A stretch of DNA of 54,940 nt, taken from the IMG/VR virus record IMGVR_UViG_3300010233_000019, positions 1 through 54,940 of that record. The stretch is one strand, 5' to 3'. Below, piece by piece: positions 3,814-54,939 of this stretch (positions are counted from its first letter, which is position 1; the number at the start of each line of letters is the position of its first letter). Under the pieces are notes generated by a model. That model saw only the letters and a program-made list of their open reading frames with translations, did no database searches and was not told the origin of the DNA. Origin of the DNA: a virus. Its lineage: Duplodnaviria; Caudoviricetes. The position numbers and the translations under genes are program-made.

Positions 3814-4587
3814 ATGCGAATTCTAGTTCTTGGAGATGGCTTCACAGATCGATACCATCTCGCCACATCCTCAAAGCTCAGTGCGGAGGTGCCCATCCCC
3901 ATTTGCAAGATAGAGGGCATTGTGGACCTCCCCGGTGGAGCCCTGAATGTCCGCGAGAATCTCCGATCCCTTGCAGTGGATGGTCGCTTCCTGGTCCCAT
4001 CGGGGGAGCTTAATTTGCCCATCAAGAACCGTCTCATGGTTGGCGACCACCAAATCGCCCGATGGGACGAGAAGGACTGGTGTACACCATATATCCCAGC
4101 GGATCTCTTGGTCCTCCTTGAGGACTGGGATGCGATTATTGTGAGCGATTATGGCAAGGGTTCAGTTTCAAAGGAGGTGATCCAGATTCTACGGGACCTT
4201 ACGATCCCGGTCTTTGTTGACACGAAGTGCGATCCCACTCCGTGGATCGGCTCGGAGGCAGTGATGTTTCCGAACTTGGCCGAATACAAGCAATACGAAC
4301 AAGCATATGAGTGGTTTGGAAAGGTACTCCTCAAACGTGGCAAGGATGGCCTTGCGATGGTGGAGTATGGAAATGTGGTCCTGACGCGGCCAAGTGTGGC
4401 ATCCTACGTACGAAGTGTGAATGGTGCGGGGGATACAACCCTTGCAGCGTTTGTGGTTGCCGTGATGAGTGGGGGCACATTGGATTATTGTATGAAATAC
4501 GCCATGGCTGCAGCGGCAGTGAGCGTGGAGAATCCCCTAACCTACGCCCCCACTGAGGCTGAGGTCTCACAGAAACTCTTTGTCTAA
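3814..4587 (+). CDS. PfkB-family sugar kinase, HldE/RfaE kinase-domain type (heptose-7-phosphate kinase)
   Basis: ILVLGD..DRY, LSAEVPIP, PGGALNV, IIVSDYGKG, VFVDTK, PNLAE, GAGDT. Confidence 0.88.
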   Translation: MRILVLGDGFTDRYHLATSSKLSAEVPIPICKIEGIVDLPGGALNVRENLRSLAVDGRFLVPSGELNLPIKNRLMVGDHQIARWDEKDWCTPYIPADLLVLLEDWDAIIVSDYGKGSVSKEVIQILRDLTIPVFVDTKCDPTPWIGSEAVMFPNLAEYKQYEQAYEWFGKVLLKRGKDGLAMVEYGNVVLTRPSVASYVRSVNGAGDTTLAAFVVAVMSGGTLDYCMKYAMAAAAVSVENPLTYAPTEAEVSQKLFV

Positions 4588-5452
4588 CTACTACCAACTC
4601 ACGGAGGAGGTTCTGGAGGGACTCAAATGGGTCTCTCCAAAGTCCGCGAGGGAAGCCCTTGGTATCATTGGTAAGTATGAGTACGACCACTGTGCGGATG
4701 ACCCCATATACTGGCTCGATCAGACCCAACATGTGAAGACCAAGACCTGGCCAAAAGGGCTCCCCTATGTCTTCACAAAGGATCCGCATATTCTTTACTC
4801 TTGCAAGACATGCGGGGTGGAGATCTTTGGAGACAAGCGAGGACTCCATCTGGAGATGTCCCATAAGATCCTCGCCAAATCCATTCGGGAACTTGGAGAA
4901 CAATTTGAAGAACTCAACCCCACCCGACCCTTCACAGTGATTGAGTACATGCCTCCAATCGCCAGAGCGTGGCTTGATTCTCAATTCTTTGTGCTGGAGA
5001 AATCCCGCGACATGATGGCCACTTGGTTGATGGTGGCACTCTTCACGTGGGATGCCCTCTTCCACAAGGGGCGACAACATATCTTCCAATCCCAAGACGC
5101 GGGAAAAACCCTCGAGCTTGTCCAACGCTCAAAGATCATCTACGATAACACCCCAAAGTTCCTGAAGGACACCATCGGACCCGTGATGTTTGGGAAGGGC
5201 AATTCCAAATCCGGGGAGTTCTTTATCCTTCGCCAAGAGAGCGAGATTCTGGGGTTCCCCCAAGGACCCGATCAGATCCGCCAGTTCCACCCTTCAGGGG
5301 TCTTCACAGATGAAACGGCCTTCCAGGTCGAAGCAGCATCCAGCTTCGCGGCCATCAAACCCGCCATCCAACAAGGTGGCAAATACGTGGGGATCTCCTC
5401 AGCCAATCGAAGCTACTTTGAACTCCTCTGCCGAGATCGGAGTGACGGATGA
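4580..5452 (+). CDS. terminase large subunit, N-terminal ATPase half
   Basis: Walker A-like EKSRDMMATW, Walker B VFTDETAF, coupling motif ISSA; no nuclease domain; TTG start. Confidence 0.85.
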   Translation: MSNYYQLTEEVLEGLKWVSPKSAREALGIIGKYEYDHCADDPIYWLDQTQHVKTKTWPKGLPYVFTKDPHILYSCKTCGVEIFGDKRGLHLEMSHKILAKSIRELGEQFEELNPTRPFTVIEYMPPIARAWLDSQFFVLEKSRDMMATWLMVALFTWDALFHKGRQHIFQSQDAGKTLELVQRSKIIYDNTPKFLKDTIGPVMFGKGNSKSGEFFILRQESEILGFPQGPDQIRQFHPSGVFTDETAFQVEAASSFAAIKPAIQQGGKYVGISSANRSYFELLCRDRSDG

Positions 5453-6015
5453 TAACCCCCCTCACAGGTCGCCGCTTCATGGGAAACTGGGACACAGTCT
5501 TCCAGTCTATCATGGAGACCCAAAATGAACTCCAGGTCCCCGGAGAGATCGCGGAGTTTGGTGTCTTTGAAGGCGGGAATACCTTGAAACTTGCCCAATA
5601 TGGCCGGAAGGTTTGGGCGTTTGACACCTACGAAGGAATCCCCAAGGAGGACTTTGATCCAGAGGTGGACAAGGATCTCCCAGGAAAGTTTACTCCCCAG
5701 TGGTCCATCGCGGATCTCTTTCGGGGGTACCCCCAGGTGATCCCCGTGAAGGGTCGGTTTGCAGAGACCCTCCCCACAATCGCCCCGAGTTTGAAGTTTT
5801 GTTTTGTCTTTTTGGATTGTGATCTGTACTCCTCCCACAAACAAGTCCTCTCGTGGTTGCCTTCTCATATGTCTCGGAATGGAGTGATTCTCTTTGAAGA
5901 CTACTACCTCCTCCCTGCAGCAAAACAAGCTGCAGAGGAATTCAAACTCGAACAAGGTTTCGGGGATCAGGGAGTTCCTGCGAATCTTGTGGTATGGAAA
6001 GACTCCCATGTGTAA
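5449..6015 (+). CDS. TylF/NovP-family SAM-dependent O-methyltransferase
   Basis: EFGVFEGG, AFDTYEGIP, KGRFAETLP, FLDCDLYSS, ILFEDY. Confidence 0.88.
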   Translation: MITPLTGRRFMGNWDTVFQSIMETQNELQVPGEIAEFGVFEGGNTLKLAQYGRKVWAFDTYEGIPKEDFDPEVDKDLPGKFTPQWSIADLFRGYPQVIPVKGRFAETLPTIAPSLKFCFVFLDCDLYSSHKQVLSWLPSHMSRNGVILFEDYYLLPAAKQAAEEFKLEQGFGDQGVPANLVVWKDSHV

Positions 6016-6297: not shown

Positions 6298-6990
6298 ATG
6301 AAAAAACTTCTTTTTCTCTTTCTCCTAATCCTCCTCCCAAGTCCTGCTCAGCAAATGACGTATTATACAGGGCTTTTTTGGGAAAATGGCTCTAGTGTTC
6401 CTGGCACTTGTACGGCTCCAGCATTTTATTACCACATCCCTACAACTACATTATATGCGTGTAGTAATGCTACGAAAACATTTGTCCAGGCGGGGGGCGG
6501 CTCGATGGTCTACCCATCCGGTACTGGCGTGGCTGTAGTCGCTAGTGGCGCAGCCTGGGCCACGACGCTCCCCACGTCCACCACAGTCAACGGGCAGACG
6601 TGTGCGCTGGGGTCATCTTGCACAATCGCAGCGGGTGGAACCGTCACCGCCACATTCCTGCTCTGCGCTGGCCCGTGCGTGGCAAACGAAACGAGCAACT
6701 GGAAGTGGTCCGCGCCCGCAGCGGTGGCCGTGGCGGGGTGCATCGTGGATGCCCAGACCTATCCGACAGGCGCGGCGGTAACCGTGGATCTACTCAAGGG
6801 TGGGACTACCACGGTGTTTACCTCCACGGTGCCGACTCTCGCGGCTGGCTCCAGCGCCTACAACGAGCAAACTGGGATGGCGGCAGCGGCAACGCTGGCA
6901 AAAGGAGACTTCCTGGTTGCTAAAGTGCTCACGGTGGGCAGCACCATTGCGGGTCAGTTTGTGAATCTCGTTTGCCGGTTGACCTACTAG
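6298..6990 (+). CDS. exported fibre/adhesin-like protein with Sec signal peptide
   Basis: MKKLLFLFLLILLPSPA signal; PGxC domain; Thr/Ala/Gly-rich beta C-terminus. Confidence 0.75.
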   Translation: MKKLLFLFLLILLPSPAQQMTYYTGLFWENGSSVPGTCTAPAFYYHIPTTTLYACSNATKTFVQAGGGSMVYPSGTGVAVVASGAAWATTLPTSTTVNGQTCALGSSCTIAAGGTVTATFLLCAGPCVANETSNWKWSAPAAVAVAGCIVDAQTYPTGAAVTVDLLKGGTTTVFTSTVPTLAAGSSAYNEQTGMAAAATLAKGDFLVAKVLTVGSTIAGQFVNLVCRLTY

Positions 6991-6998
6991 GAGACTCC

Positions 6999-8840
6999 AT
7001 GCGCTATCTGATGATCTTGATTCTCGCGTCCGTAACAGCGTGGGGCGCAACCTGCACCGCAACACAGAACGGCAACTGGACTACAGCCGCGACGTGGGGC
7101 GGAACGTGTGCCGGAAGCGGAACCAACTCCACCCCTGCGACGGGCGACATTGCGGCGATTGCGGCGAAGACGGTCACGGTGGACGCCAATGTTACGGTGG
7201 GCACCTCGCCCAACGATGCGACCACTGCCGTTATCACTTCCACTACCACGGGAAGGCTCAATGTTGCGGCGGGTGTGACACTCATCGTCAAAGGCAATAT
7301 GAGCTTCGGCAACGGCGGAACGCTCGACCTGGAGGCAGGGGCAACGCTCACCTTCGACAATTCCTCCAGCGGTGGAAGTCCCGTTTACCAACTCATCAAC
7401 ATCGGGAGCCAGACCTACATCTTCAACGGCACAGCGCAGGCCAGGGCGACGTTCCAGGCCATCGCTGGGCAGAGCTTCATCATCGGGCGACCCTGGACTT
7501 CGTTCACCGCTTCCTACACCGACTTCTACCGTGGTTCGGTGATCTCTGGCTCTCTGAGCGTGCCGGGTGATATATCTATCACCAATTGCACCTTTACTTC
7601 GTGGGGTCCAATCGCTCCCACCAATAGCAGCGCGACGGTGAACGTGATCGTGCGGAACAACGTCTGGACAAGCGGCACGGGCGCGAATGATTTCAAGCCG
7701 TCCTACTCCAGTGCAACTTTCACTAGCGGAACGCGAGAGATCAGCGGGAATGTGTTCAGCACTCTGTTTGCATACGACAGCACTTTGGGATTCTCGATCT
7801 TCAACAACTACTTCGGCAACTCTGTAAACTCCACCTCACAGAGCACGAAACTGTGGACGACATTCCATGACAATTTCGTCAATGGAGGAAGCGGCACCCC
7901 GGCAACTGGACAAATCTTCGTTGGCCCTACCTCGCACAACTATTTCGTGCAGACTACCGCCATCGGCAATCCTCACTTCATTGCCCCGGTTGCGGTGGCT
8001 GCTGCCACCACCTACGAGCAGAACATCTTTGAGTCCCAATCCATCGACGCGATAGACACTGGAGATGCGATCCTTATCAACGCTGGCGCGGGAACCACGT
8101 TCTCGATCACTCTCCAGAACAACATCGTGCTGCCAGATCCACTGGCGGGCGCGAACTACGTTGCGAGTGGTACTATGGCTACGATCTTTTCCAATTCCAC
8201 CACGACGAGCAACTGGAACAAAAACACCTTCAATACCAATAAGTCTGCGGCAACGGTACTGCGCGGCGGCATCGCTTATGAGGAGGGCGGGGGTGGATTC
8301 GCGGGGCAGATCGCGCAGATGAAAAGCAATCTCGCTTGGGGGTCAACGAGCGGACAGGGCGCACTGGCGGAACAGAACAGCGGCACCACGTTGGATGTGA
8401 TTCTCCCGGCTGGCGCTGACTACAACTGGACCTGGAACACGGACGCCGGGAACAACGGGCGCAGCTATAACTACAAAACGGGCGGCACGTTTATGTGGAG
8501 CGGCAGCCAGAACGCCGCTGCGGCTGGTGTGGATAATCATCAGGGAACGGGCGATCCGCGATTTCTGGACTCTACCCGGTGTGCGGCAAAGTGGGCCGCT
8601 GCGCGCGGTTACGGATCGACATTCGCGGACGCGCAGACTGCCCTGAAGGCGAACCCGGCTCGGGTGTCCGACCTAATCGACTATGTGCGGCAAGGCTACA
8701 TCCCTACCAGCCTTTCGCTCAAGGGGAAGGCACACGATGGCACCGACCCCGGAGCGGTGGTCATCACCGTGTTCGGCAGTGCGGGGGCCAATATGAGCAC
8801 GTCGCTGGCAACCACGTTCAGTGGGGGGGTGGCGTTCTAA
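6999..8840 (+). CDS. exported beta-helix-like protein with Sec signal peptide
   Basis: MRYLMILILASVTAWGA signal; GNWTTAATWGG start; repeated Asn-ladder motifs (NNVW, GNVF, NNYF, NNIV). Confidence 0.75.
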   Translation: MRYLMILILASVTAWGATCTATQNGNWTTAATWGGTCAGSGTNSTPATGDIAAIAAKTVTVDANVTVGTSPNDATTAVITSTTTGRLNVAAGVTLIVKGNMSFGNGGTLDLEAGATLTFDNSSSGGSPVYQLINIGSQTYIFNGTAQARATFQAIAGQSFIIGRPWTSFTASYTDFYRGSVISGSLSVPGDISITNCTFTSWGPIAPTNSSATVNVIVRNNVWTSGTGANDFKPSYSSATFTSGTREISGNVFSTLFAYDSTLGFSIFNNYFGNSVNSTSQSTKLWTTFHDNFVNGGSGTPATGQIFVGPTSHNYFVQTTAIGNPHFIAPVAVAAATTYEQNIFESQSIDAIDTGDAILINAGAGTTFSITLQNNIVLPDPLAGANYVASGTMATIFSNSTTTSNWNKNTFNTNKSAATVLRGGIAYEEGGGGFAGQIAQMKSNLAWGSTSGQGALAEQNSGTTLDVILPAGADYNWTWNTDAGNNGRSYNYKTGGTFMWSGSQNAAAAGVDNHQGTGDPRFLDSTRCAAKWAAARGYGSTFADAQTALKANPARVSDLIDYVRQGYIPTSLSLKGKAHDGTDPGAVVITVFGSAGANMSTSLATTFSGGVAF

Positions 8841-9004: not shown

Positions 9005-9238
9005 ATGTCCTATCCCATCCCATTTGATCCACATAATTGCCTGGTCTATGTCCTCACCTTGTGGGTTCTATATCGGGGGAAGATCATCCTCCGAAAGTCC
9101 CCTCGGGGTTGGTGGTTCCATGCATGGTGGACAAAGGATGGAAAGGACCTCTATGAGTATACTCCTCTAGATCCAAGGTATGATCTCATCTCTCCTCCGA
9201 TGTTCTATAAGGGATACATCAAAACAACCCATCTCTAA
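9005..9238 (+). CDS. hypothetical aromatic-rich protein
   Basis: 77 aa ORF coupled (TAATG) to the next gene. Confidence 0.65.
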   Translation: MSYPIPFDPHNCLVYVLTLWVLYRGKIILRKSPRGWWFHAWWTKDGKDLYEYTPLDPRYDLISPPMFYKGYIKTTHL

Positions 9239-10146
9239 TGCCCACTCTCCTCCATCAACAGCAAGGACTGACCATTGTGAAGAACGACAAGAACGGCTTC
9301 ACAGTGTGCACACTTCACTTCACTGCGGATCCAAAGAAACGCAGCCCCGAGTGGAAACGCGAAGCCTCACAGGGTCTCTCCAAGGCCAAGTTCGAACAAG
9401 AATACGAGATCTCCTATGATGCGTTGATGGGGGAGAGGGTCTTCCCAGAGATCAAAGATCGCCAGGATGAAATCATCTATGCCGAAGGCCCCTTCCTGGA
9501 GGATCATTGGCCCTCCGATCTCCCCATGTGGGGAGGCTTTGATTATGGGGCTCGAAACCCCTCGTCCTTCCACATCTACACCATCTACGATAAGGTGATG
9601 TATGCTTTGTGGGAACTGTATGAGCCTTGCAAGAATATCTTGGACTTTGCCCAACGCATGAAGGATTGCCCGTATTGGGGGCAACTCCGCTACATCGCAG
9701 CGGATCCAGACATATTCAACCTCAAGCAACGCGACATGCGGACGGGACTCCCCATCAGTGTGGAGTCACAATTCCGTAGCCTCGGAGTGAACAAACTCCT
9801 CCAAGGAAACACCGATGAGGCGGGGTGGATTGCCCAGGTCCAACGTCGCTGGCAGGGGCCGGAGATCACCTTCAAGATCCACGCCTCATGTCGAAACATG
9901 ATCAACGAATTTGGCGAAGCCACCTACGTCTCCATGAGTGATCGCCAACTTGAAACCTCCAACTACCGAGAAGCAATGGTAGACAAGAAAAACCACTCCC
10001 TGGATGATTGTAAATACTTCATGAACTCATGTCCCTCGGGAGGACTCAGAAAGGGAAAGCTTCCCTCGCTCGTGTCAAACTACAGCCCCTGGACCTCGCA
10101 ACGCGAAACGGGAAGTCTCTATGATTGGAGTAAAAAGGAATTCTAA
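9238..10146 (+). CDS. terminase large subunit, C-terminal RNase H-like nuclease half
   Basis: EQEYE linker, GGFDYGARNP, AADP, KKNHSLDDCKY; directly upstream of portal. Confidence 0.85.
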   Translation: MPTLLHQQQGLTIVKNDKNGFTVCTLHFTADPKKRSPEWKREASQGLSKAKFEQEYEISYDALMGERVFPEIKDRQDEIIYAEGPFLEDHWPSDLPMWGGFDYGARNPSSFHIYTIYDKVMYALWELYEPCKNILDFAQRMKDCPYWGQLRYIAADPDIFNLKQRDMRTGLPISVESQFRSLGVNKLLQGNTDEAGWIAQVQRRWQGPEITFKIHASCRNMINEFGEATYVSMSDRQLETSNYREAMVDKKNHSLDDCKYFMNSCPSGGLRKGKLPSLVSNYSPWTSQRETGSLYDWSKKEF

Positions 10147-10149
10147 CCT

Positions 10150-12438
10150 ATGGCCATAGTTCCGTATGAACATTCATTTCCGGTAGACTTTGCACAGGGG
10201 GAGAACAAAGCCTCCCAACGAGCGGGATCCAATGAGGACGAGGCCCGCATTGCGGGATTCATCACCACATGGAGATCCCAACTTCGCTCTACATTCATCA
10301 CCCGCCGAAACATCTGGGACGATTGCTGGAAGCTCTATCGAGGGCTGGATGATTGGTCGAATAGGGAGGATTGGCAATCCAAGATTGTCCTTCCCAAGAG
10401 TTGGGCCTCCGTCAAGATGGCCACCAACACGATCAAGAGGCTCCTCTCCACTGCAAAGCGGCCCTATACAATTGAGTCGATCAACCCGGATGATCTTCTG
10501 ACTACCCTCCGGGCGGAGCAGATGACGGATCTCACCCGGGTCTTCCTGGACAAAGCTCACTTTCTTCAAGAATTCACTGAGGGCCTTGAGTGTGGGTTCA
10601 TCTTGGGCCTGGGAGTGTGGAAACTCTGGTGGGGTCTCGTCCCGCGCAAGAGGACCCGAGTTGAGACCCAAATGATGCAGATCCCCTATGGGGCTCCCGG
10701 GCAGTTCGGCCAAGGTGGCCAAGGCCCACAAGACATCCTCCAACACGAACCTGGCAAGGATGTGATGCCAGCCTTTGCCCAAGGCATGAAAGCCTATGGT
10801 GCTCAGGATGCTTCACAATACCCCACCCAACTCCCGCAGGAAGCATTGTCCCCACAGGGTTGGGGAGGTTTGGGGCTCGGCAACTTCGCCCCTCCCTCGA
10901 TGCTTTCCATCCCTCAGAAAAAGGTCATCCAAGAGGAAGTCCTCGAGGGGCAACTCTTTCTGCGTGCCGTGGATCCATACAACTTCCACTGGCTCCCCGG
11001 ATCAAAGCTCAACCGCTGGGTCGGAACGATGGAGGATGTGGAAATCCCCAAGTGGGAACTCATCAAGATGGCCGAAGCAGGACTCTTCCCGATGGAAAAG
11101 GTCAAGGCCATTCAACCCAAGCGAATTGATGAGCGGTACCTCATGCGGACCCTCCGATTCTCCGAGACAGTGCTGACCCAGAATGGCCCGAACTCCGACA
11201 CGGCAGTCTGCCAACTCACGGAGTACTTTGGTCCACTCATCTTTGATGGCAAGATCTGGGATGAAAATGCTCACGTAATCCTAGCTAACGACTCCACGGT
11301 TCTGCTCTACCAGCATAATCCCTTCTGGCATGGCAAGTCCCCATACATTGCATTCTCCCCATTGTCCCTGCCCTTCCGAACCGAAGGTGTGGGGCTCGTG
11401 GAGATGGTCCGGAATATTGACAAAGCTCTCTCCCAGCTTGCCAATCTTTCTGTGGATACTTTGATGTTTCGGCTTCTGCCACTCTTTGAGGTAGCTACAG
11501 ATGCTTTTGAGAATCCTGAAGATCTTGAAACTGGCATCACGCCTGGAAAGATGCTGCGTAAGAATCTTGGCTCGGCTGGGGTGGAAGGCATCCGGCCCGT
11601 ACGTTTCGAGGATGTCTCCTCGGGTACCGTCCAAGTCGCCGGACTCCTGGATCGTTCTCATCAGGAAGGTGCGCTGATCTCGGATGTCGCGGAGGGGATC
11701 CCTCGATGGAGGGGACAGCAAACCGCAACGGAAACCCAAGCCTTACAGCAACAAAGTGAGAGCTTCATGGGATCCATGGCGGGGGACATCGAGAGTCAGG
11801 CCTTGCAGCCCCTCGTGCAGATGGCGATGGATCTGATCTTTCAGTTCATTGATACCGCGAATGATCCCCGGATTGCATCGATCCTGGGCGTTGGTGCGGA
11901 TTCCCTCGCTGCGATGAGCCGAGAAGAGATTATGGAAATGATCCAGGGGGAGTACAAAGTGAAGGCCCTTGGCATCACAGGCCAGCTCCAGAAGGCCGAC
12001 ATGCTTCAGAATCTGGTCCAATTCATGAACCTCATCGGCCAGAATCCCCAAGCGTGGCTCCCGTATATCAACCAGGATGCGTTGCTGCGGAGAGTTCTTG
12101 AGGCCTTCCGCCCAACGATCCATGACATTGAGGATATCATCTCTGATCCGGCTCTGGCTGAGGCCAAAAAGGCTGAGATGCAGCAGAATGAAATCACCCC
12201 GGATCTGATCCGGCTCCTTCCGCAGCTTGCATCGATGGCTCAGGGCCAGCAACAGACTCAGCATGATCAGTCCTTGGATCTCCAGCGGATGCAACACGAA
12301 CGGGAATCCACCTTAATGGATCAACACATCCAGACCGCTCAGATGATGGCCCAACATGCCCAGCAAATGGGGGCCCAACAGATCCAGCAACAACAGGTCC
12401 AACAGCAAGCTGCCCCGCAGGGCCAGGGAGGTCAGTAA
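10150..12438 (+). CDS. portal protein
   Basis: 762 aa after terminase; VDPYNF, GVGLVE, QTATE motifs; Gln-rich tail. Confidence 0.85.
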   Translation: MAIVPYEHSFPVDFAQGENKASQRAGSNEDEARIAGFITTWRSQLRSTFITRRNIWDDCWKLYRGLDDWSNREDWQSKIVLPKSWASVKMATNTIKRLLSTAKRPYTIESINPDDLLTTLRAEQMTDLTRVFLDKAHFLQEFTEGLECGFILGLGVWKLWWGLVPRKRTRVETQMMQIPYGAPGQFGQGGQGPQDILQHEPGKDVMPAFAQGMKAYGAQDASQYPTQLPQEALSPQGWGGLGLGNFAPPSMLSIPQKKVIQEEVLEGQLFLRAVDPYNFHWLPGSKLNRWVGTMEDVEIPKWELIKMAEAGLFPMEKVKAIQPKRIDERYLMRTLRFSETVLTQNGPNSDTAVCQLTEYFGPLIFDGKIWDENAHVILANDSTVLLYQHNPFWHGKSPYIAFSPLSLPFRTEGVGLVEMVRNIDKALSQLANLSVDTLMFRLLPLFEVATDAFENPEDLETGITPGKMLRKNLGSAGVEGIRPVRFEDVSSGTVQVAGLLDRSHQEGALISDVAEGIPRWRGQQTATETQALQQQSESFMGSMAGDIESQALQPLVQMAMDLIFQFIDTANDPRIASILGVGADSLAAMSREEIMEMIQGEYKVKALGITGQLQKADMLQNLVQFMNLIGQNPQAWLPYINQDALLRRVLEAFRPTIHDIEDIISDPALAEAKKAEMQQNEITPDLIRLLPQLASMAQGQQQTQHDQSLDLQRMQHERESTLMDQHIQTAQMMAQHAQQMGAQQIQQQQVQQQAAPQGQGGQ

Positions 12439-12439
12439 G

Positions 12440-13105
12440 ATGCCAGTCGATACCATCCGAGGTTCCTCAGATCTCCCTCTCTCTGGGGAGGGCCATGACC
12501 AGGCGAATGTGGTGGGAATGCAATTCGCCCAGAAGGGAGGGCTGGATCGAATCCATAGTTCCAGCCTTACCCGGGCCGTGCAGACCGCCAAGGCCATCTC
12601 CCGCCACACCCACGCACCGATCACCAAGGTCAGTGAGGATCTTCATCCTTGGCATCTTGGGGGCCTGGAGGGAAGGCCAACCACTGAGGTCCTCCCTGAG
12701 ATGGATCGCCTCATTGGAGAGGCTCCCGATGAACCTGCCCCTGGGATGGGCCCAGAATCCACCGCGCAGGGGGAATCCTTCAATGACTTCAAACGTCGTG
12801 GCCTCGCGGGACTGAAGATGCTCCTTGCAGAGCACACAGCAGATCCCTCTGCCAAGATCGGAGCGGTCACCCACTACCGCAATGTCCGTCTGGCTAACGC
12901 CTGGGCGAAGGAGGGGGGAGTGGGAAATGACCGTGTGAAGCCCTCTGAAATGCACGATGACACCTCTGGACCCACGAGTGTGTGGAGGTTTGCCACGGGG
13001 CAGAAGGAAACTCCTCAGCTCACCAAAATCGACATGGGCTCCCCCGACCCCCTGGATGGTGGGGTATATCTCATCCGACATGGCGCAACGGATTGGAATG
13101 GTTAA
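12440..13105 (+). CDS. histidine phosphatase superfamily protein, circularly permuted
   Basis: RGxxDLPLSxxG, SSSLTRAVQTA, GES, VTH motifs in normal order, but VYLIRHGATDWN at the extreme C-terminus. Confidence 0.85.
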   Translation: MPVDTIRGSSDLPLSGEGHDQANVVGMQFAQKGGLDRIHSSSLTRAVQTAKAISRHTHAPITKVSEDLHPWHLGGLEGRPTTEVLPEMDRLIGEAPDEPAPGMGPESTAQGESFNDFKRRGLAGLKMLLAEHTADPSAKIGAVTHYRNVRLANAWAKEGGVGNDRVKPSEMHDDTSGPTSVWRFATGQKETPQLTKIDMGSPDPLDGGVYLIRHGATDWNG

Positions 13106-13117
13106 GGAGATACAGAA

Positions 13118-14392
13118 ATGGCAGATCCCGTAAGACTAGTCGAAGGCCCAAATGACACTGCAGTGGGGAATCCCTCCAATCCCATGGAGATCTCTGTGGT
13201 GGGACCCACCGATGCATTCTCCCGAATGAGGACCTCGAGTCCAGTCACACTATTTGACTCCCAGTTGCAATATGACTTGCACCCTCTTCTTTGGGAGAGT
13301 ATCCTCACTGCAACGGGCACGGTAACCCATCTCCCAAATGAATCCTCCGCGCAGTTAACCGTGGTGACCTCTGGGGACAAGGTAATCCGCCAGAGTCATG
13401 GGTACTTTCGATACCAACCTGGGAAGTCCCAACTCATTGCCCAGACATTTGTATTTGGAAGTGCCACAACAAATATCCGCCGAAGACTGGGGTACTTCGA
13501 TGTGGACAATGGGATCTTCCTCGAGCAAGTCTCCACGGGTGCGAGTATTGTGCGTCGCACCAAAACCTCCGGGGTGGCAGTGGACACTGCCGTGGCCCAA
13601 ACCAATTGGAATCTTGACAAGCTTGATGGATCCGGAACTTCTGGGATAACCTTGGATCTCTCCAAAGCCCAGATCTTAGTGATAGATCTCCAATGGTTGG
13701 GCACCGGACGGGTGAGGGTGGGATTTGACATTGGAGGGACCATCATCTATGCCCATCAATTCCTCAACTCCAACTCCATCACCACGGTCTACATGACCAC
13801 TGCAAATCTCCCCCTTCGATATGAACTTGAAGCCACTGGGGCGATTGGGGCTTCCACCACGATGAAGCAGATCTGTTCCAGTGTGATCTCCGAGGGGGGA
13901 TTTGAGGAAGGCCGAGGTCTGAGTTTCTCCGCGTCGAATCCCCTCGCAGGGAAGGCCATCACCACCCGGGCAGCGGTGATTACGATTCGGCCAAAATCCA
14001 CTTTCAACTCCATCCCCAATCGAGGCCAGATCATTCTGGACCATCTTGATACCATGGTTGTTACGAATAATGCTTTCTATGAAATCGTGTATAACGGCAC
14101 CCTTGGAGGAACCGCAACATACACCTCGGTTGATGCCAATTCCCTTGTGGAGTTTGACACCGCATCTACGACGGTCAGTGGTGGAACCGTGATTGAGAGT
14201 GGGTACCTTGCAGCAGGTGCGGGAAATGGAGCCAATGCAGTCTCCCAGGTCTCTGAAGTAGGGTTAAATTCTCGTCTCGCAATTGCCCTAAACGCTGCAG
14301 GGAATATTGCCGACACGATAACCTTTGTTGCCACAGCTCAAACTGGTACCTCCACAGTAAATGCAACCTTTGAATGGAAGGAAATCCGATAG
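13118..14392 (+). CDS. probable virion structural protein (beta-rich)
   Basis: [32 protein letters not shown] motifs; lies in the head region. Confidence 0.65.
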
Positions 14393-14399
14393 GAGATTT

Positions 14400-15455
14400 A
14401 TGAAACAACTTTTGCGTTTGGCAATGGTACTTTTAGGGCTGGGCCTCCTTGGCCATGCCCAGACTCCCACATGGTATGGGGGGATCTACTATGATGCGGG
14501 GACTTCCACCCCGGGGAGTTGTAGCCCTCCCGCGATGTTCTATCGCACGGATCAGATTATATTCTACATGTGTGGGAAGGATGGAACCTACCACTCTGCG
14601 GGGAGTGGGGGTGGGAGTAATGCAAGTGTCGTGGCAACCTTCAATACCTCTACGAGTAGTTGTAGTTTGGCGGTGGGGGCTCCGGTGGGAGCCACCTGTG
14701 TTGCTGCAACTGGGGCTTCACCAAAAGTAACTGTCACTCATAAACTCAACAATGCCCACGTAAGTGGGTGGGTGGATGATGCAAATGGAATTGTGGGAAG
14801 CAACATCCTTACTGCCAAGGCCACCTCTGCGGATATATTCGTGTGGACATTTGTCTCTGACCAAACCGGAACGGCGACTATTGACACCGGAGGTGTTGGC
14901 CCTCCGGGACCTACGGGTAGTGCGGGTGCAACGGGGGCTACTGGTCCTACAGGTGCAACGGGTCCCACCGGACCCACGGGCCCGACTGGCTTAACTGGTC
15001 CTGCCGGACCTGCAGGATCTGGTGCGGGGGATGTCCTTGGCCCCGCTACAAATCATGATGGGTGGATCCCAGAGTGGAATGGAGCAAATAGCAAGACCCT
15101 AAAGGATGGTATTGACCCGGCAACGCTCCTCACAACTAGTTCCGGAGCAACCATAACCATTGCAACTGGGACAGCGGCTCTGGGCACCGGGGCACTTGCA
15201 GCCAATACTTGTGCATCTGAGGTGCAACCCACAGCGGCAACGGGGAGTCTCTCAACCATTGCCACTACAGATATCATCAGTTGGACTCCAAACGCAGACT
15301 GGAGTGGGTTGGTGGGATATGGAAAGGCGAGCACAGACGGTCTAATTGTGTACCCGAAGCCCTCTTCGGCCCATGTGGGGTTTATCGTCTGCAACGCGAC
15401 GGGCACGAGCATCACAGTACCAGCGGCAACCGTGAACTGGGCGGTGAGGAGATGA
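14400..15455 (+). CDS. exported collagen-like fibre protein
   Basis: Signal [20 protein letters not shown]; PGSC domain; about 14 Gly-X-Y repeats. Confidence 0.8.
14898..15023 (+). repeat. collagen-like Gly-X-Y coding repeat
   Basis: [42 protein letters not shown]. Confidence 0.9.
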
Positions 15456-18894: not shown

Positions 18895-19848
18895 ATGGCA
18901 GGTCAACAGTATTCCACCGGATCCCTTGGTGGATTTCTATCTCAGCCCTTCCTGACTCAGCGTCTCCGCGCAGTTGCACAGCCGCAGTTCCGGTTCCGTC
19001 AGTTCACTGACGTGAAGGAAGCCATTGGTAAAAACCGTGGTGACACGTGGCTGTTTGACAAGCGTGGAAATGTCTCGACTCAGGGTACGGTGCTTTCGGA
19101 AACCAACACCATTCCCCAGACCAACTTTGTCGTAGGTCAGGGAACGGGCCAGATTGTAGAGTACGCGAATAGCGTGCCGTATACTGGCAAGCTCGAAGCT
19201 CTCGGCCAGATCATGATCGAACCCGCAGTGGAGCAGTCCCTGCGAGATGACATGGTCAAGACCCTCGAGTCCGCGTGCGGGAATGAGTTTGTAAAGACAG
19301 ACTTTGTTGCCGTGTGTTCGCAGACGAATTCGGTGGCTTTCACCACGAACTCGACTCCCGCTGCGACGGCCAGTGCTGATTTGACTGGCTTCAATGTCCG
19401 CTCGATTGTGGACTTCATGAAGAAGAAGCTCATTCCGAAGTTTGACGGGGCTTCCTATATCTGCATCGCCTCCACCGCTGCGCTCTCGGGTATGTTCTCG
19501 GATACCGCGGCGGGTGGTTGGGTAGATGTGTCCAAGTACACCGTGGAGTATGCGAAGAACATCTTCAACGGGGAGATCGGCAAGTACTACAATGTCCGCT
19601 TTGTGGAGGAAACTGGGTACCTGTCCAACTCCATCGGTTCGGGTAGCACCCATGGTGCGGCTCTGTTCTTTGGCGCGGACAATGTCTACGAGGCCGTAAC
19701 GGTCCCCGAGGAAATTCGCGTGAAGGTCTCTCTCGACTACGGTCGTGATCAGGGTCTCGCGTGGTACTTCCTGGGTGGGTTCAAAATGGTGTGGAGCTTC
19801 GCGGTAACCCCCGCTGAGCAGCACATCGTGTATGTCACCAGTGCGTAA
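18895..19848 (+). CDS. major capsid protein (HK97 fold, N4-gp56-like)
   Basis: QFRFRQF, GEIGKYYNVRFVE, DYGRDQGLAWY; strong SD; position. Confidence 0.88.
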   Translation: MAGQQYSTGSLGGFLSQPFLTQRLRAVAQPQFRFRQFTDVKEAIGKNRGDTWLFDKRGNVSTQGTVLSETNTIPQTNFVVGQGTGQIVEYANSVPYTGKLEALGQIMIEPAVEQSLRDDMVKTLESACGNEFVKTDFVAVCSQTNSVAFTTNSTPAATASADLTGFNVRSIVDFMKKKLIPKFDGASYICIASTAALSGMFSDTAAGGWVDVSKYTVEYAKNIFNGEIGKYYNVRFVEETGYLSNSIGSGSTHGAALFFGADNVYEAVTVPEEIRVKVSLDYGRDQGLAWYFLGGFKMVWSFAVTPAEQHIVYVTSA

Positions 19849-39845: not shown

Positions 39846-42521
39846 TTAGCCCTCCAATTTTAACTTCGAAACTTCTCCCCAACTCTTGGTGGAGTATTTG
39901 ATATCACACTCGAAGTGGAATCCATTGAGTTCTGGCCAGGGTTGGCACAAGATCGAAGCCGACTTCCGGGCTTGTTCCATGTGGCCGTCATGGGGACCCA
40001 TCAAGACAATCGAATCATGTACCTGTGCTGCCATTCTCCAGTCCCTGGCCATCTCATGAAAGACTCCCATCTTCCAGTGATCCACACTTGGCCAGATCCT
40101 GGGATCCGTTGGGAAGTGACAGAACATCATTCGTAAAACCATATCCGCCAAGGTGGATGCGGGTAAGAAGGCGAGGCTCTGTCCCGAAATATCTCTACTC
40201 TGAAACCATCTCTTGCGCCCAAACGGATTACACAGCCACCCTTGTTTCTGAGCAGTCTCAATCGTCCGTTGTTGCCACTTAGCAGTGCCAGCATTAAGCC
40301 CTTTCCAAATCTCCACAAACTCCTTAATGTCGGCCTCGGAGTAGTTAAACCCTTCCTCAACGAGAAACTCGCGTTGCTTTTTAACACCCATACCGTAGTT
40401 TCTGCCATGGTTGATTTTCTTTCCCACGTCTCGCCAGAGTTTGTCGTCTTTGGATTTGGAGATGGGACGGCCAAAGATTTTTGATGCCAGATCACAATGC
40501 TCATCGTAGCCGGGGGTTTTGAGACGTTCCCATCGATCCCAGTCCTCGGCTAGCCATGTGGTGAGGTAGTTTTCTGCTCCGGAGATATCCAAATTAAGAA
40601 TCCCCCAACCAGGATTGTCAGGAACGTAGATAATCCGGAACTCTTCCGGTTGGTTTTGAATATTGAGATCAATCCCTTCACGACGGCCCGAGCTTGCCAA
40701 GCGTCCCTCGGAAGTGCCGTGGACCTTGAGATTGAAGTACATTCGATCTTGGCCAAGCAATGAGTCCTTCGCAAAGTTATTTCGGAGAGTAATCTTTTCC
40801 TTAAGCTTGTCGAGGATGGAGAACTCCGGGTGATCCTTAGAGCCCCAGAGTTTCCGGGCTCTCTTGCCTGTTGTGATGTTTCCACTTTTGGTGTCCTTTA
40901 TGGTGCGAAGCCCTTGGCCCTGGGAGTATGCCTGGACTTGGGTGGTGGAGTTGTAAGGGACAATCCTCTCTATACGAGTTCCTTTGGTAATTTTTGCCTC
41001 CACCATTTTCCCACTGGTGAGTTTCTTACCACACTCGCAAGTATATTCTTGACCGAGGGATGTGAACTCGAAACGCTTTGGCGAGTGAGGATTGCGCGAA
41101 TTGCCTTTACAAGTCTTGAATTTGGGTCGTAGTGTTCCAGGAGCTGCGATGCAGTTACATGGGACTTTTTGTTCATAAGGTTTTAATCCCTCTGGAAGAA
41201 GGTCTTCGTATTCGATTATCTCTTTATCAAGAACCTCTCGTATCTCTCCAAGTCGAGACGTGTCAAGTTTGAAGCCTCGCTCTCCAATGTCTCGGCAGAT
41301 GAAGGCCGCAGGGACGGAGACGTGTCGATAGACAGCTTCAATGTCGAATCGTCGGAGAGCTTGAGAGAGGGGGATATTGATCTGGAACTCTGCATCAGTA
41401 TCTCGTGCGTTGTAGAGTCGGTAAGCTTCATCTCCACTTCGACAACCAAGATATCCCCCACTGTCCTTAGGGATACCGAGATCTGGAGAATCCCAGGTCT
41501 TCCATTGAATGTGACTGGGTACGAGGTTTCCGTCTTCATCTTCGATTTCTCCCCATTTTCCTTTCCAGAAGACTTTGTTCGTGAAGACCGAGGCCACGAA
41601 GCCAAGGTCATGTTTCATATCGGGTTGGACGAGGTGTTGCTTGAGCATCGTGTCTTCGATCACAGCTTTGGAGACATCCCATCCAAGCCGATCAAGATGG
41701 GCCATGTCTGCGTTGATGATGTTGTGGCCAATCAAACTCGTGGCGGACTCGAAGATCCTTTTAAGCTCAGGTATATAGGCACCAGCAAAAGGCACAACAA
41801 TAGCGCTATAAAACCTATCAGTGAGACCACACACAGTGATGTTACCGTCTCGATCCCATTCAAAATCGAACGCAAAATCCTTCGCATTCCAATCTTTCAC
41901 TTCCTGCAAGGTTGGGAAAAGATTGTATCGCTCCGGGGGGAGGACAAGGGACTTTTTGAGATCCCCCACTACCACGCTGAACATCTTGGCTTGCCTCATG
42001 AGGAAGGCGGGATGGAGAGTAGGGATCACACGGGGCTTGGCACTCGTATCACCCCGAAGGGGAAGGGGACTACCTCTCCATATGGTTATCCCTTTACGTG
42101 TGGTGAGGGCTTCGAGGGCATGGTCCCCAAGGGCGATGATTTTGGGCTTCCCACTCCTGGCCAAGGATGGGAGGAAGTGGTGTTTGCGGCAATACTCAAT
42201 CCCCACACGGGCAACGTCTTTACTGGTCCATCGCCACTTCGGATCCGCTGGAAAGACATTCTCCGGAGGGCGGCACCCAATGACATTCAATGTGGAGCAA
42301 TGATCAAATGGGATCCCCGCGCATTTGGTGAGATTGCGGAGCCACTGGCCTGCTCCGCCGACAAAGCCTCGACCCTGACGAGCCTCTTCCTCCCCTGCGG
42401 CCTCTCCAACGAGGAGATGCTGGCCATCACTTGAGAAGAGAGGGACATAGCCTTCTCCTGGGCCATTGCTGGTGAGATGGCCAATTGGGCATAACGCACA
42501 GTACGCTGGTTTAGCAATCAT
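39846..42521 (-). CDS. family A DNA polymerase with N-terminal uracil-DNA glycosylase (family 4-like) domain
   Basis: LVGEAAGEEE..GFVG..G, CRPPEN, TLHPAFLMR; exonuclease FDFE, GHNI..D, YNARD; polymerase GRLAS, NIQNQP, LDISGAE, KKINHGRNYG, VHDS. Confidence 0.92.
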   Translation of the reverse strand: MIAKPAYCALCPIGHLTSNGPGEGYVPLFSSDGQHLLVGEAAGEEEARQGRGFVGGAGQWLRNLTKCAGIPFDHCSTLNVIGCRPPENVFPADPKWRWTSKDVARVGIEYCRKHHFLPSLARSGKPKIIALGDHALEALTTRKGITIWRGSPLPLRGDTSAKPRVIPTLHPAFLMRQAKMFSVVVGDLKKSLVLPPERYNLFPTLQEVKDWNAKDFAFDFEWDRDGNITVCGLTDRFYSAIVVPFAGAYIPELKRIFESATSLIGHNIINADMAHLDRLGWDVSKAVIEDTMLKQHLVQPDMKHDLGFVASVFTNKVFWKGKWGEIEDEDGNLVPSHIQWKTWDSPDLGIPKDSGGYLGCRSGDEAYRLYNARDTDAEFQINIPLSQALRRFDIEAVYRHVSVPAAFICRDIGERGFKLDTSRLGEIREVLDKEIIEYEDLLPEGLKPYEQKVPCNCIAAPGTLRPKFKTCKGNSRNPHSPKRFEFTSLGQEYTCECGKKLTSGKMVEAKITKGTRIERIVPYNSTTQVQAYSQGQGLRTIKDTKSGNITTGKRARKLWGSKDHPEFSILDKLKEKITLRNNFAKDSLLGQDRMYFNLKVHGTSEGRLASSGRREGIDLNIQNQPEEFRIIYVPDNPGWGILNLDISGAENYLTTWLAEDWDRWERLKTPGYDEHCDLASKIFGRPISKSKDDKLWRDVGKKINHGRNYGMGVKKQREFLVEEGFNYSEADIKEFVEIWKGLNAGTAKWQQRTIETAQKQGWLCNPFGRKRWFQSRDISGQSLAFLPASTLADMVLRMMFCHFPTDPRIWPSVDHWKMGVFHEMARDWRMAAQVHDSIVLMGPHDGHMEQARKSASILCQPWPELNGFHFECDIKYSTKSWGEVSKLKLEG

Positions 42522-48892: not shown

Positions 48893-49074
48893 CAGCCACG
48901 CTCCAACCAAATCTTACAACACAAAGGGAAGTAGCGAACGCTGTATTCCCACAACTCTTTTTGGGCAAGAAGTTTACACCAAAACGTCTCCTGCACATAT
49001 GGGGTAACATATATATGGTTATTCACTGCTGTGAGGGAGGCATCACAACTGTACCAAAGCTTCCAACATCTCAT
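48892..49074 (-). CDS. W..CK-family microprotein (copy 9)
   Basis: MRCWKLWY...FWCKLLA. Confidence 0.65.
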   Translation of the reverse strand: MRCWKLWYSCDASLTAVNNHIYVTPYVQETFWCKLLAQKELWEYSVRYFPLCCKIWLERG

Positions 49075-49610
49075 AACTCCTCCATCAATCCATACACCAA
49101 AATATGGCTCAAGATGAGATGGCCATCCTCGCTGCGACCCATGTGCATCGCGGGGACAAGGAGGGTGTGATCTGCGAGATCCTTTGCATGCCCCCCATCA
49201 AAGCCAAGAACTGCAAGGGTTTCCATATCCTTCCCTCGTGCTGCGAGAAGGGCAGCGAGGATGTTGGGGGAGTTTCCACTCCCTGAGATCACAATAAGGA
49301 GATCCACAGGACTCCCGTACATCTCGAGTTGCCGAGAGAAGATGTGTTCGTAACCCTCATCGTTACCCAGGGCGGTGATCATGGCCAAGGACGTGAGACT
49401 TTGGGCCTTCACATGACATTGTTTGGTGAGATCCTGGGCAAAGTGATCCGCAAGGGAGGCACTGCCTCCGTTGCCACAGATCCATACCGTGCCACCTCGC
49501 TCTTGGCATTGGGTTAGGAGATCCCAAGCCTTGAGGATCTCCGGTTCGGAGATGGAGGCAAGATTCTTTTGCAAGGAGAGGAGATAGGTCTTGATGTATT
49601 TTGAGGTCAT
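49071..49610 (-). CDS. gmhA: phosphoheptose isomerase (SIS domain)
   Basis: CGNGGSA..A.HF, TALGND.GYEHIFSRQ, ISGSGNSPN, GFDGG, EDGH...H. Confidence 0.88.
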   Translation of the reverse strand: MTSKYIKTYLLSLQKNLASISEPEILKAWDLLTQCQERGGTVWICGNGGSASLADHFAQDLTKQCHVKAQSLTSLAMITALGNDEGYEHIFSRQLEMYGSPVDLLIVISGSGNSPNILAALLAARGKDMETLAVLGFDGGHAKDLADHTLLVPAMHMGRSEDGHLILSHILVYGLMEEL

Positions 49611-49762
49611 AGAGAGGACTCTGAGGGCTTTGGTTGTAGCATCCACATCCTACCAGGAGAGGTCTGGCATAAGTACTTAAGTTGAGAGGTAGCCCAAATC
49701 TTGCATGGATACGATGTCCATCTTAGGAACCTTCCATTCTTGAGGTACACTATTATCCACAT
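49607..49762 (-). CDS. W..CK-family microprotein (copy 8)
   Basis: MWIIVY...YPCKIWA. Confidence 0.65.
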   Translation of the reverse strand: MWIIVYLKNGRFLRWTSYPCKIWATSQLKYLCQTSPGRMWMLQPKPSESSL

Positions 49763-53731: not shown

Positions 53732-54649
53732 CTAGTTCACTCCTTCGGAGGTTTCCATCTTGAGAGAATCCAAAAACTCCTGCCATTGCAACTCCAAACA
53801 CGCAGGGCAGACGAGTTCTTTTTTGGTGTCCACCTTTGTGGTCCGGCAGATGTAGCAGATATCCGTGCTCATCCAATACCCAGTACCCACCGGACGAGAC
53901 GATGTGCTATTCCACGGTGGGTATGACCCAACTTCGCCAGAGTTCGAGTAGTCCGGATATAGGGTGACTTTTTTTTTGCTCGCTTCAAAGGGAAGGGTTT
54001 CGATTTTGAGAAGCGTGTCTCTCCCATCTTGGGTGGTGAGTTGATACTTCACAAACTCATCGATTTGCCAATTCGTTTTGATTGGGTTCCCAAGGATCCT
54101 AGCGATCTTACTGAGAGGAGTGTATGTGGAACAGAAAACAAGTTCTCCCCCCTCGAGGGTGGCTACGTGGAGATCTTGGGTTCCAAAGCGACAGAAGTTG
54201 AGTTGATCTTCTTCATACCACGCCAGGGCTCCATAGCCCTCGAGGCCTTCCACACCTTTGCCTTCCGCAAAGTTCGCATAGATATGCATCGAGTCCACTT
54301 CAAACTTGCGATTCCATCGGGTGTTCAGATCTGTGTGGGTCCGGATGATTCCATTGTGAATGCCAATCACCCGTCCACCATCGGCTTTGGGAAACTCGAA
54401 GGGATGTGCATTGTCCAGGAGCTTTGGAGAGCCATGTGAGGCACTTCGGGTGTGGAAGATCCCCCGATGTCCGGACCACTCTGGGGGACACTCAAAGGAA
54501 TCCACAATGGACCCAATGTGTTTGATGATGGTATAGCCATCCGAGGCTCCCCAAGAATCCGTGCCTCTCGCGGACATCTCAATCCCAAGATACGGAAGCA
54601 TTGCCCGAGTTGAAGGGGTGATGCGACTTACCCCAAATATTCCACACAT
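53732..54649 (-). CDS. class II (Ntn) glutamine amidotransferase
   Basis: N-terminal MCGIFG, RGTDSWG, HTRSASHG, NAHPF, HNGII, EVDS. Confidence 0.9.
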   Translation of the reverse strand: MCGIFGVSRITPSTRAMLPYLGIEMSARGTDSWGASDGYTIIKHIGSIVDSFECPPEWSGHRGIFHTRSASHGSPKLLDNAHPFEFPKADGGRVIGIHNGIIRTHTDLNTRWNRKFEVDSMHIYANFAEGKGVEGLEGYGALAWYEEDQLNFCRFGTQDLHVATLEGGELVFCSTYTPLSKIARILGNPIKTNWQIDEFVKYQLTTQDGRDTLLKIETLPFEASKKKVTLYPDYSNSGEVGSYPPWNSTSSRPVGTGYWMSTDICYICRTTKVDTKKELVCPACLELQWQEFLDSLKMETSEGVN

Positions 54650-54681
54650 GTAAGTTAAGTGTCCTTTTGGTTTAGATGGTG

Positions 54682-54939
54682 TTACTGAAGATTCCGAAGA
54701 TACTCCCGCCAATCCCCGGAGGGGATAAGTGGCTCTCCATCTCGATGGGGGAAGGTATATATTTCACACTTCCTGATAACTCCGTGGGTAACATCAAATA
54801 CGGAGGCTGTAAGTCTCCGATAAAGCCGTGGATGTCCCTCGATTTGATCAAGTAAGTGGAGAGTCCCTGGGGTAACTTGGTATATCTCCCCTCGGATGAT
54901 GTTAGTCCCGTCGAGGACAAGACTTACTCCCGGGACTTG
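54682..54939 (-). CDS. gamma-glutamylcyclotransferase (GGCT/AIG2-like), 5' end cut off by the window edge; not in ORF track
   Basis: Manual translation ...PG...IRGEIYQV...LLDQIEGHPRLYRR...IY...IPSGDW. Confidence 0.8.
   Translation of the reverse strand, partial: QVPGVSLVLDGTNIIRGEIYQVTPGTLHLLDQIEGHPRLYRRLTASVFDVTHGVIRKCEIYTFPHRDGEPLIPSGDWREYLRNLQ

Follow-up and report, generated by a model that had tools for sequence, protein, structure and literature searches.

The gene at positions 12440..13105 (plus strand) of the viral contig IMGVR_UViG_3300010233_000019 encodes a protein of 221 residues, P0001, that belongs to branch 1 of the histidine phosphatase superfamily but has a permuted chain: the strand with the nucleophile motif RHGxTxxN, which opens the canonical chain, stands at the end of P0001. 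The contig, a linear metagenomic sequence of 54,940 bases with a CheckV completeness of 82%, was analyzed over its whole length and is called the window below. The assignment comes from the open reading frame (ORF) itself, the match to Pfam family PF00300, a two-piece match to the phosphatase PhoE, and an AlphaFold2 (AF2) model. An initial annotation had proposed that the ORF encodes a natural circular permutant, possibly standing in for the heptose phosphatase GmhB. The permutation was borne out by sequence, profile, predicted fold, and 133 of the best 150 cluster representatives of the family, and we regard the permuted fold as almost certainly real; the GmhB proposal is weighed further on.

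In the ORF translation P0001 begins with MPVDTIRGSSDLPLSGEG and terminates with GVYLIRHGATDWNG at the stop codon, as had been read before, and it contains all 221 residues in one frame. The RHGxTxxN motif is present as IRHGATDWN (residues 212–220), C-terminal instead of N-terminal. The canonical chain order, with the RHG strand first, was not found; the order is rotated by one strand. The segment GVYLIRHGATDWNG (residues 208–221; 13061..13102, plus strand), which comprises the displaced first strand and the nucleophile motif, holds Arg213, His214, Thr217, and Asn220, matches PhoE residues 4–18, and includes the AF2 strand E208-213. The new N-terminus, IRGSSDLPLSGEG (residues 6–18; 12455..12493, plus strand), is equivalent to the canonical segment after the RHGxTxxN loop, and its counterpart in canonical sister proteins reads RIRGWxDVPLxxxG. 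The linker DMGSPDPLDG (residues 198–207; 13031..13060, plus strand) connects what were the last and the first strand of the ancestral chain; it is coil between strands E192-197 and E208-213 in the AF2 model and a variable region in A1, an alignment and profile of 68 free-standing relatives.

The native sequence scored 86.7 bits (cut-off 21.7; E 2e-24) with Pfam His_Phos_1 (PF00300), the match being split over two stretches, which answers a profile check suggested in the initial annotation. The main stretch paired P0001 residues 6–157 with positions 17–159 of the 194 in the profile, and about 16 leading profile positions, those of the first strand, had no counterpart at the N-terminus of P0001. 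The A1 profile matched PhoE (1h2e_A) with an E-value of 3.2e-26, again in two pieces. Positions 214–228 (iYliRHgaTawNeee) aligned with PhoE 4–18, and positions 9–177 aligned with PhoE 18–176. Because the two pieces join at PhoE residue 18, the match has the signature of an exact circular permutation. Standard models name such proteins 'PhoE' or 'histidine phosphatase' and leave the rearrangement unnoticed; all NCBIfam matches of the phosphatase were far below the cut-offs.

The AF2 model of P0001, made on A1, had a mean predicted local distance difference test score (pLDDT) of 96.5 and a predicted template modeling score of 0.93. Its first half consists of H16-31, E37-41, H44-57, E61-65, H81-93, and H114-134, and its second half of E139-144, H146-157, H168-172, E181-186, E192-197, and E208-213. 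The resulting series, H E H E H H E H H E E E, has six strands, as the alpha/beta fold of the superfamily requires, and the C-terminal strand E208-213 had a block pLDDT of about 98. The canonical sister P0033, modeled on alignment A3 (pLDDT 91.0), consists of E3-7, H33-45, E51-57, H60-73, E77-80, and H96-108 followed by H121-141, E145-150, H152-156, H158-163, E178-182, and E189-194. This series is the same as that of P0001 except that the first strand has moved to the end in P0001. The AlphaFold check suggested earlier thus returned the canonical elements, rotated by one strand, at high confidence.

Solved structures gave the same picture. With VIA-align, the P0001 model scored Z 16–18 against more than 40 solved members of the histidine phosphatase superfamily. 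Model residues 2..201 were superimposed on residues 16..199 of 4ij6_B (Z 17.8, root mean square deviation [rmsd] 2.7 over 179 residues) and on residues 17..201 of 1h2e (Z 17.1, rmsd 2.7 over 177 residues); as is normal for a sequential aligner, the opening strand of the solved structure and the closing strand of the model had no partner. Foldseek matched dPGM, TIGAR, and CobC structures with E-values down to 6e-9 and template modeling scores of 0.57–0.66.

The order is a property of a large family. A word-index search found 34 relatives, 26 permuted and 8 canonical, and an exhaustive phmmer search found 1,588 representatives of 50%-identity clusters at E ≤0.001, 633 at ≤1e-10, and 55 at ≤1e-30. 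The break point was scored in the best 150 of these 1,588 representatives. The identical break point, for which the initial annotation had proposed to look, was found in 133 of them: 128 in full order, 4 truncated at the N-terminus, and 1 with an insert (P0096). The remaining representatives were 14 canonical proteins and 3 fragments. In P0096 (1989 residues) the core occupies residues 643–835 and the RHG strand residues 1042–1088, with about 200 residues inserted between them. A search of viral contigs returned 1 locus with the single protein as query and 2 and 16 loci with a 15-sequence alignment. Plasmids gave only two weak matches (query coverage 69% and 56%, 27–31% identity), one of which falls under an annotated histidine phosphatase family protein. 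PADLOC had no family for P0001, P0033, or P0022. One permuted homologue, P0016, lies on a 63.6-kb contig labeled at NCBI as part of a Thaumarchaeota metagenome-assembled genome; because its size is that of a phage, this contig may be viral and have been binned.

Conservation was counted in 150 permuted and 21 canonical sequences. Among the permuted sequences, the nucleophile His214 is present in all 150, Thr217 in 148, Arg213 in 135, and Asn220 in 127; in the N-terminal segment, Arg7 is present in 131, Gly8 in 148, and Gly18 in 150. The two other catalytic residues noted previously, in LTRA and VTH, are both there. Arg45 (in SLTRA; 12572..12574, plus strand), the second arginine of the phosphate pocket, is invariant in both sets (150/150 permuted, 21/21 canonical). 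His145, the second catalytic histidine, lies in VTHYR (residues 143–147; 12866..12880, plus strand) and is found in 134/150 permuted and 21/21 canonical sequences; its replacements are Asn (10/150) and Ser (6/150). P0001 retains the full phosphate-pocket set of Arg213, His214, Arg45, and His145.

The suspected replacement of the acidic residue in LHPW also stood. The segment LHPWHLGGLEG (residues 68–78; 12641..12673, plus strand) aligned to LREIHLGDWEG of PhoE, and Pro70 occupies the place of the general-acid Glu in the LREIHLG part, so that P0001 lacks the Glu typical of branch 1. Position 70 in the 150 permuted sequences is Pro in 100, Ser in 24, Asp in 10, Ala in 8, and Thr in 8. A different acidic residue, Glu77, is present in 147/150 permuted sequences versus 3/21 canonical ones, in which position 77 is Gln (7), Thr (6), Ala (5), or Glu (3). 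One sub-branch of 11 proteins (P0090, P0104, P0115, P0117, P0146–P0148, P0155, P0161, P0170, and P0172) has LILH(S/G)LTDDD in place of LIRHGxTxWN, with Arg changed to Leu and an acidic tail, and RISGSS in place of IRGSS; the LILHSLTDDD sub-branch accounts for the replacement of Arg213 by Leu in 11/150. Seven of the 11 have a 2H domain as partner, five of those an XkdF domain too; two have an ADP-ribosyltransferase alone, and two have no Pfam partner.

The origin of the permutation was examined by comparison with the canonical sisters (P0028–P0033 and others), which have the derived motifs RPWNLG, GGESFNxFKxR, and VTHxR in common with the permuted clade. Profile–profile comparison of A1 with A3 gave a probability of 100% and an E-value of 8.6e-54 over 179 columns. 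A FastTree tree (LG+gamma) was built from the shared core (profile columns 8–190) of 171 of the 182 stored sequences, leaving out 11 fragments or odd rows (P0044, P0061, P0062, P0096, P0107, P0114, P0119, P0129, P0139, P0168, and P0180), and was rooted on the PhoE-like P0034 and P0035. In this tree the 150 permuted sequences were monophyletic (SH-like support 0.79) and nested within the canonical phage-type sisters (node support 1.0). Because they form one clade inside the sisters, a single permutation event is the simplest reading. At the canonical Glu position, 19 of the 21 canonical rows have Pro, and the 2 with Glu are the outgroup. Since Pro is already present in the canonical sisters and Glu77 is fixed only in the permuted clade, loss of the acid came before the permutation, and fixation of Glu77 came with it or after it. 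The permutation would have arisen once, in a phage-borne lineage without the Glu, most simply by tandem duplication followed by trimming of both ends. The break point falls in the loop after RHGxTxxN, which is variable in length among the sisters and is modeled less confidently in P0033 (pLDDT 74 in the second block). No intermediate with both an N-terminal and a C-terminal RHG strand was found among the relatives. P0054 was considered and rejected, its upstream LRHPST being compatible with chance, as were P0026 and P0102, whose second weak matches were insignificant.

The gene itself is well delimited. A Shine-Dalgarno-like AGGGAGG (12425..12431, plus strand) lies 8 nucleotides (nt) before the ATG, within the last codons of the upstream portal gene (10150..12438, plus strand; phrog_1216, E 2e-18), whose product is 82% identical to the portal protein of the locus L005; this placement fits translational coupling of portal and phosphatase. 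A single base separates the portal stop codon (12436–12438) from the phosphatase ATG at 12440. Because close relatives begin 4–10 residues ahead of IRGSS, the start at 12440 is sound. No RHG was seen upstream of 12440 in the phosphatase frame, in keeping with the earlier statement that none lies where the portal gene ends. Downstream is a gene for a virion structural protein (13118..14392, plus strand; phrog_1645, E 3e-105). A 184-nt contig of run X1 matched 13042–13225 with one mismatch, from the RHG strand across the stop codon into the next gene; since this contig possibly derives from the sample that gave the assembly, it does not count as independent support. A frameshift fusion of portal and phosphatase was considered and rejected, because the two genes are separated by an 81-nt gap in L005 and the phosphatase has a good Shine-Dalgarno sequence and ATG.

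The window is phage-like throughout, with terminase pieces, a collagen-like fiber protein, an SU10-type adaptor, a family-A DNA polymerase, a primase, and an exonuclease; the major head protein is encoded at 18895–19848. Among related loci, L005 is closest (portal 82%, phosphatase 61% identical) and has the order terminase–portal–phosphatase found in the window. In L004 the phosphatase gene follows the portal and major head protein genes, in L001 a canonical sister stands between terminase and portal, and the phosphatase gene of L003 and L007 closes a plus-strand structural block and adjoins minus-strand phosphoesterase, primase, and polymerase genes. The neighbors in L003, L006, L007, L016, and L019 are mostly without a recognizable family, and a phmmer comparison with the window proteins gave nothing useful. 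We conclude that the phosphatase is an accessory gene of late structural-gene operons, not a fixed component of the head module.

Many relatives are much longer than P0001. The 150 permuted proteins comprise 82 of up to 310 residues, 22 of 311–700, 29 of 701–1500, and 17 of more than 1500. Free-standing forms account for roughly half of the relatives and are the majority form; the others are parts of large phage proteins. In one group of proteins of 700–1200 residues the phosphatase domain is C-terminal and follows low-complexity regions rich in Pro, Gln, and Gly that contain A[KR]GG[VI] and GExGPE. The possibility that the long proteins with a C-terminal phosphatase are portal fusions was rejected; they are not portals, and their N-terminal parts match no Pfam or PHROG family. 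Partner domains were sought in a Pfam scan of 67 permuted proteins of more than 310 residues (P0118 was too long for the scan), and other Pfam domains were found in 17 of them. The partners were 2H/LigT phosphoesterase (12 proteins), XkdF-type peptidase (6), ADP-ribosyltransferase (3), SNF2 (2), ddrB-ParB (2), methyltransferases (2), and Strawberry-notch helicase, Fic, and SLT (1 each). Recurrence inside multi-domain phage proteins with conflict domains, which marks an effector domain of polyvalent proteins, is thus a feature of the family; P0001 itself has a single domain.

Some sequence features recur around the domain. The motifs xA[KR]GG[VI] and GExGPE stand just ahead of it, no more than 120 residues upstream, in 23 of the 77 proteins with at least 40 upstream residues (P0036–P0154). 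Ser is the C-terminal residue in 54 of the 116 proteins with a C-terminal phosphatase domain, typically as ...GS, ...AS, ...QS, or ...NS (relatives P0008–P0166); the canonical sisters P0028, P0029, and P0033 likewise end in ...GS, and P0001 has no such tail. A tail of the form KPTVMTL..GPQ.V.PL follows the domain in P0049, P0111, and P0128.

Taken together, these results are best explained, in our judgment with reasonable though limited confidence, by a folded and probably active permuted phosphomonoesterase that serves the phage as an accessory effector. The ancestral first strand (RHGxTxxN, with Arg213 and the nucleophile His214) has become the last strand, tied by the 10-residue linker to the ancestral last strand, and the chain starts in what was formerly the surface loop after the motif. 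The C-terminal strand would insert in the center of the sheet, and His214 would join Arg45 and His145 around the phosphate. Catalysis would proceed via a phospho-His214 intermediate, as in PhoE or dPGM. In place of the canonical Glu, the clade-specific Glu77 might act as the acid, or the substrate might have a good leaving group. That P0001 is catalytically active seems likely to us.

The role proposed for P0001 is that of a late-expressed accessory effector, which would act on a phosphorylated small molecule or a nucleic-acid end in the infected cell. The nearest characterized relatives, PhoE, CobC, and iPSP1, are small-molecule phosphatases, and the recurrent fusion to 2H domains suggests, with modest confidence, chemistry on nucleotide or RNA terminal phosphates. 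The phosphatase may belong to one toolkit with the 2H phosphoesterase, ADP-ribosyltransferase, Fic, and helicase domains of giant phage proteins. Whether it is a host-directed or counter-defense effector rather than a metabolic enzyme we consider an even question. A bolder version, to which we give only a small chance, is a dedicated counter-defense enzyme working downstream of 2H phosphoesterases: it would strip the terminal phosphate that remains once a cyclic-phosphate or cyclic-nucleotide bond has been opened and so permanently erase nucleotide immune signals or heal cleaved RNA ends. The permutation would then have been selected because a nucleophile strand in last place lets the domain insert into, leave, or refold from ejected virion polyproteins, and the free-standing copies would be the same weapon alone.

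Several observations weigh against the phosphomonoesterase effector. The canonical general acid is absent, and of the 150 permuted sequences 16 have another residue in place of His145 and 15 in place of Arg213; given these replacements and the missing acid, some members of the family may be inactive or work differently. The insertion of the last strand in cis beside Arg45 and His145 is suggested by confidence values and the order of elements in a predicted model. Monophyly of the permuted sequences is moderately supported (0.79), and the sequences in the tree were aligned to a profile built from permuted ones. Most of the long relatives (50/67) have no recognizable partner domain. The position of the gene varies among loci, so that its adjacency to the portal gene is weak evidence for packaging of the free-standing form. 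A tblastn search of 50,697 records of deposited phages found no match, and all relatives are therefore metagenomic.

Four other explanations were weighed. That the permuted order is an artefact, through misassembly, a frameshifted piece of a canonical gene, or the remnants of two genes, has nothing found in its favor and practically no chance of being correct: the order and break point are common to the 133 representatives and to L003–L020 from other assemblies, the frame is intact with its Shine-Dalgarno sequence, the fold prediction is confident, and the X1 contig bridges the C-terminal strand, the stop codon, and the next gene. It is rather improbable that the protein is a catalytically dead module whose fold, after loss of the acid, merely binds a phosphorylated ligand or serves structurally. 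Such a module would be compatible with Pro70 in place of Glu and with the sub-branches in which Arg213 is Leu (11/150) or His145 is Asn or Ser (16/150), but His214, Arg45, and Thr217 are invariant or nearly so, Glu77 is found in 147/150, P0001 keeps Arg213, His214, Arg45, and His145, and an active enzyme would be expected to show just such purifying selection on the nucleophile. SixA, PGAM5, and Sts-1 are protein phosphatases of the histidine phosphatase superfamily, and P0001 might likewise act on phospho-His, phospho-Ser/Thr, or phospho-Tyr of host signaling or defense proteins. Two observations point this way, a weak hit to TIGR00249, the model for SixA (E 3.3e-6, well under the cut-off), and the fusion of relatives to the protein-modifying ADP-ribosyltransferase and Fic domains; loss of the Glu acid would presumably matter less with a phosphoramidate substrate. 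We nevertheless find a protein substrate unlikely, because the best profile and fold matches are the small-molecule phosphatases PhoE, CobC, and iPSP1, and because the commonest partner, 2H (12 of the 17 proteins with partners), points to nucleotide or RNA chemistry.

The remaining alternative is the proposed stand-in for GmhB, in which the phosphatase would remove the 7-phosphate of D-glycero-D-manno-heptose-1,7-bisphosphate in place of the HAD-family GmhB. Locally the proposal is coherent. The window encodes a heptose-7-phosphate-kinase-like PfkB protein (3814..4587, plus strand; PF00294, E 1.5e-12; TIGR02198 rfaE_dom_I, E 7.7e-35, below the cut-off) and a GmhA-like SIS-domain protein (49071..49646, minus strand; PF13580, E 2.1e-18; TIGR00441 gmhA, E 9e-36, below the cut-off). 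The complete relative genome G001 has the phosphatase and both heptose genes, and no match to TIGR00213 (GmhB) was found in the window record (G000), G001, or G002. Histidine phosphatases can use sugar bisphosphates, and the PDB profile matches include YKR043C (E 8.6e-13), which we take to be a sedoheptulose bisphosphatase. Family-wide, the proposal was not supported. The complete genome G002 has the phosphatase and neither heptose gene, and G003 is a 25% fragment. GmhA and heptose kinase accompany the phosphatase in G000 and G001; these two are one lineage (polymerase 55% identical) and amount effectively to one co-occurrence. The three genes are scattered over the window (3.8, 12.4, and 49 kb), both heptose-gene matches fall below curated cut-offs, and no match to a cytidylyltransferase or to the adenylyltransferase that would act next in the pathway was found in G000, G001, or G002. 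No fused relative has a sugar-nucleotide enzyme as partner; the partners include 2H, ADP-ribosyltransferase, protease, and helicase domains. Most of the phosphatase family occurs in other contexts, including giant multi-domain phage proteins. A GmhB role thus seems improbable, and at most the phosphatase is a functional analogue, not a member of the GmhB (HAD) family.

Other features of the window were noted in passing. A further sugar-metabolism gene, at 53732–54712 (minus strand), encodes a protein whose N-terminal domain resembles the glutamine amidotransferase domain of GlmS. The terminase large subunit seems to be split into two ORFs, 4580–5452 and 9238–10146, which lie 3.8 kb apart and match different terminase PHROGs; between them are a TylF-like O-methyltransferase gene (5449–6015) and the family-less ORFs 6298–6990 and 6972–8840. 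In L005 the gap between the corresponding pieces (85% and 81% identical) is only 1.6 kb and holds the methyltransferase gene. The family-A DNA polymerase (39846–42521, minus strand) has an N-terminal domain of the uracil-DNA-glycosylase superfamily (PF03167, E 2.4e-13) before its 3'–5' exonuclease domain. The fiber-like protein (14361–15455, plus strand) contains a collagen-like G-x-x repeat, and its gene begins 32 nt before the virion structural gene ends.

The permuted form is a large, phage-specific enzyme family that has apparently gone undescribed. No description of the histidine phosphatase (dPGM-like) fold in a naturally occurring, circularly permuted form was found in full-text literature outside subscription journals, as far as it is available, and none of a phosphoglycerate mutase as an ejected phage virion protein was found in full-text literature outside such journals. 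Among the literature matches listed for histidine phosphatases in bacteriophage anti-defense, there was likewise no description. The family matters because the nucleophile strand of a textbook fold, first in the canonical chain, has been shifted to last place and has stayed in that place in no fewer than 133 clusters (50% identity). It offers a natural test case for re-threading a central strand without losing the active site, and ordered steps are available: loss of the acid, then permutation, then a new invariant Glu. Its recurrence beside host-attack domains in giant phage proteins is a lead to an unrecognized step in phage–host conflict; for the lineage of the window, an alternative lead is phage-directed heptose metabolism.

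Among known enzymes, PhoE (YhfR) of Geobacillus (Bacillus) stearothermophilus (1H2E/1EBB) is the best profile match (E 3.2e-26 / 5.2e-26), and its fold superimposes on that of P0001 in VIA-align with Z 17.1–17.2 and an rmsd of 2.7 over 176–177 residues. The two proteins have in common RHGxTxWN, the second Arg, a GESF-type motif, and the second His; they differ in that PhoE has the RHG strand first and Glu in LREIHLG, whereas P0001 has the RHG strand last and Pro70. The top structural match is iPSP1, the phosphoserine phosphatase of Hydrogenobacter thermophilus (4IJ5/4IJ6; Z 17.8, 20% identity), the strand order of which is canonical, unlike that of P0001. With the HAD-family GmhB, P0001 would share a reaction at most, as suggested by the GmhA-like and heptose-kinase-like genes of the phage; fold and chemistry are unrelated, with an Asp nucleophile in HAD enzymes and a His nucleophile in P0001.

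The fused relatives resemble the polyvalent proteins described for phages and conjugative elements (Iyer, Burroughs, Anand, de Souza, and Aravind, J Bacteriol 2017, PMC5512222). The architectures match, with SNF2/Strawberry-notch, methylases, ddrB-ParB, 2H, ADP-ribosyltransferase, Fic, SLT, and XkdF domains in common; the polyvalent proteins are multi-domain, whereas P0001 is free-standing. The main text of that paper contains no mention of phosphatase, phosphoglycerate mutase, PGAM, or permutation. Also close is the canonical phage-borne sister clade (P0028–P0033, P0130, P0140, and others, with the L001 ORF), in which the Glu is likewise lost and the genomic setting is similar. In these sisters the RHG strand is N-terminal and position 77 is variable, whereas in the permuted clade the strand is C-terminal, position 77 is Glu, and a stretch of 8 residues that the sisters lack stands just ahead of GESF.

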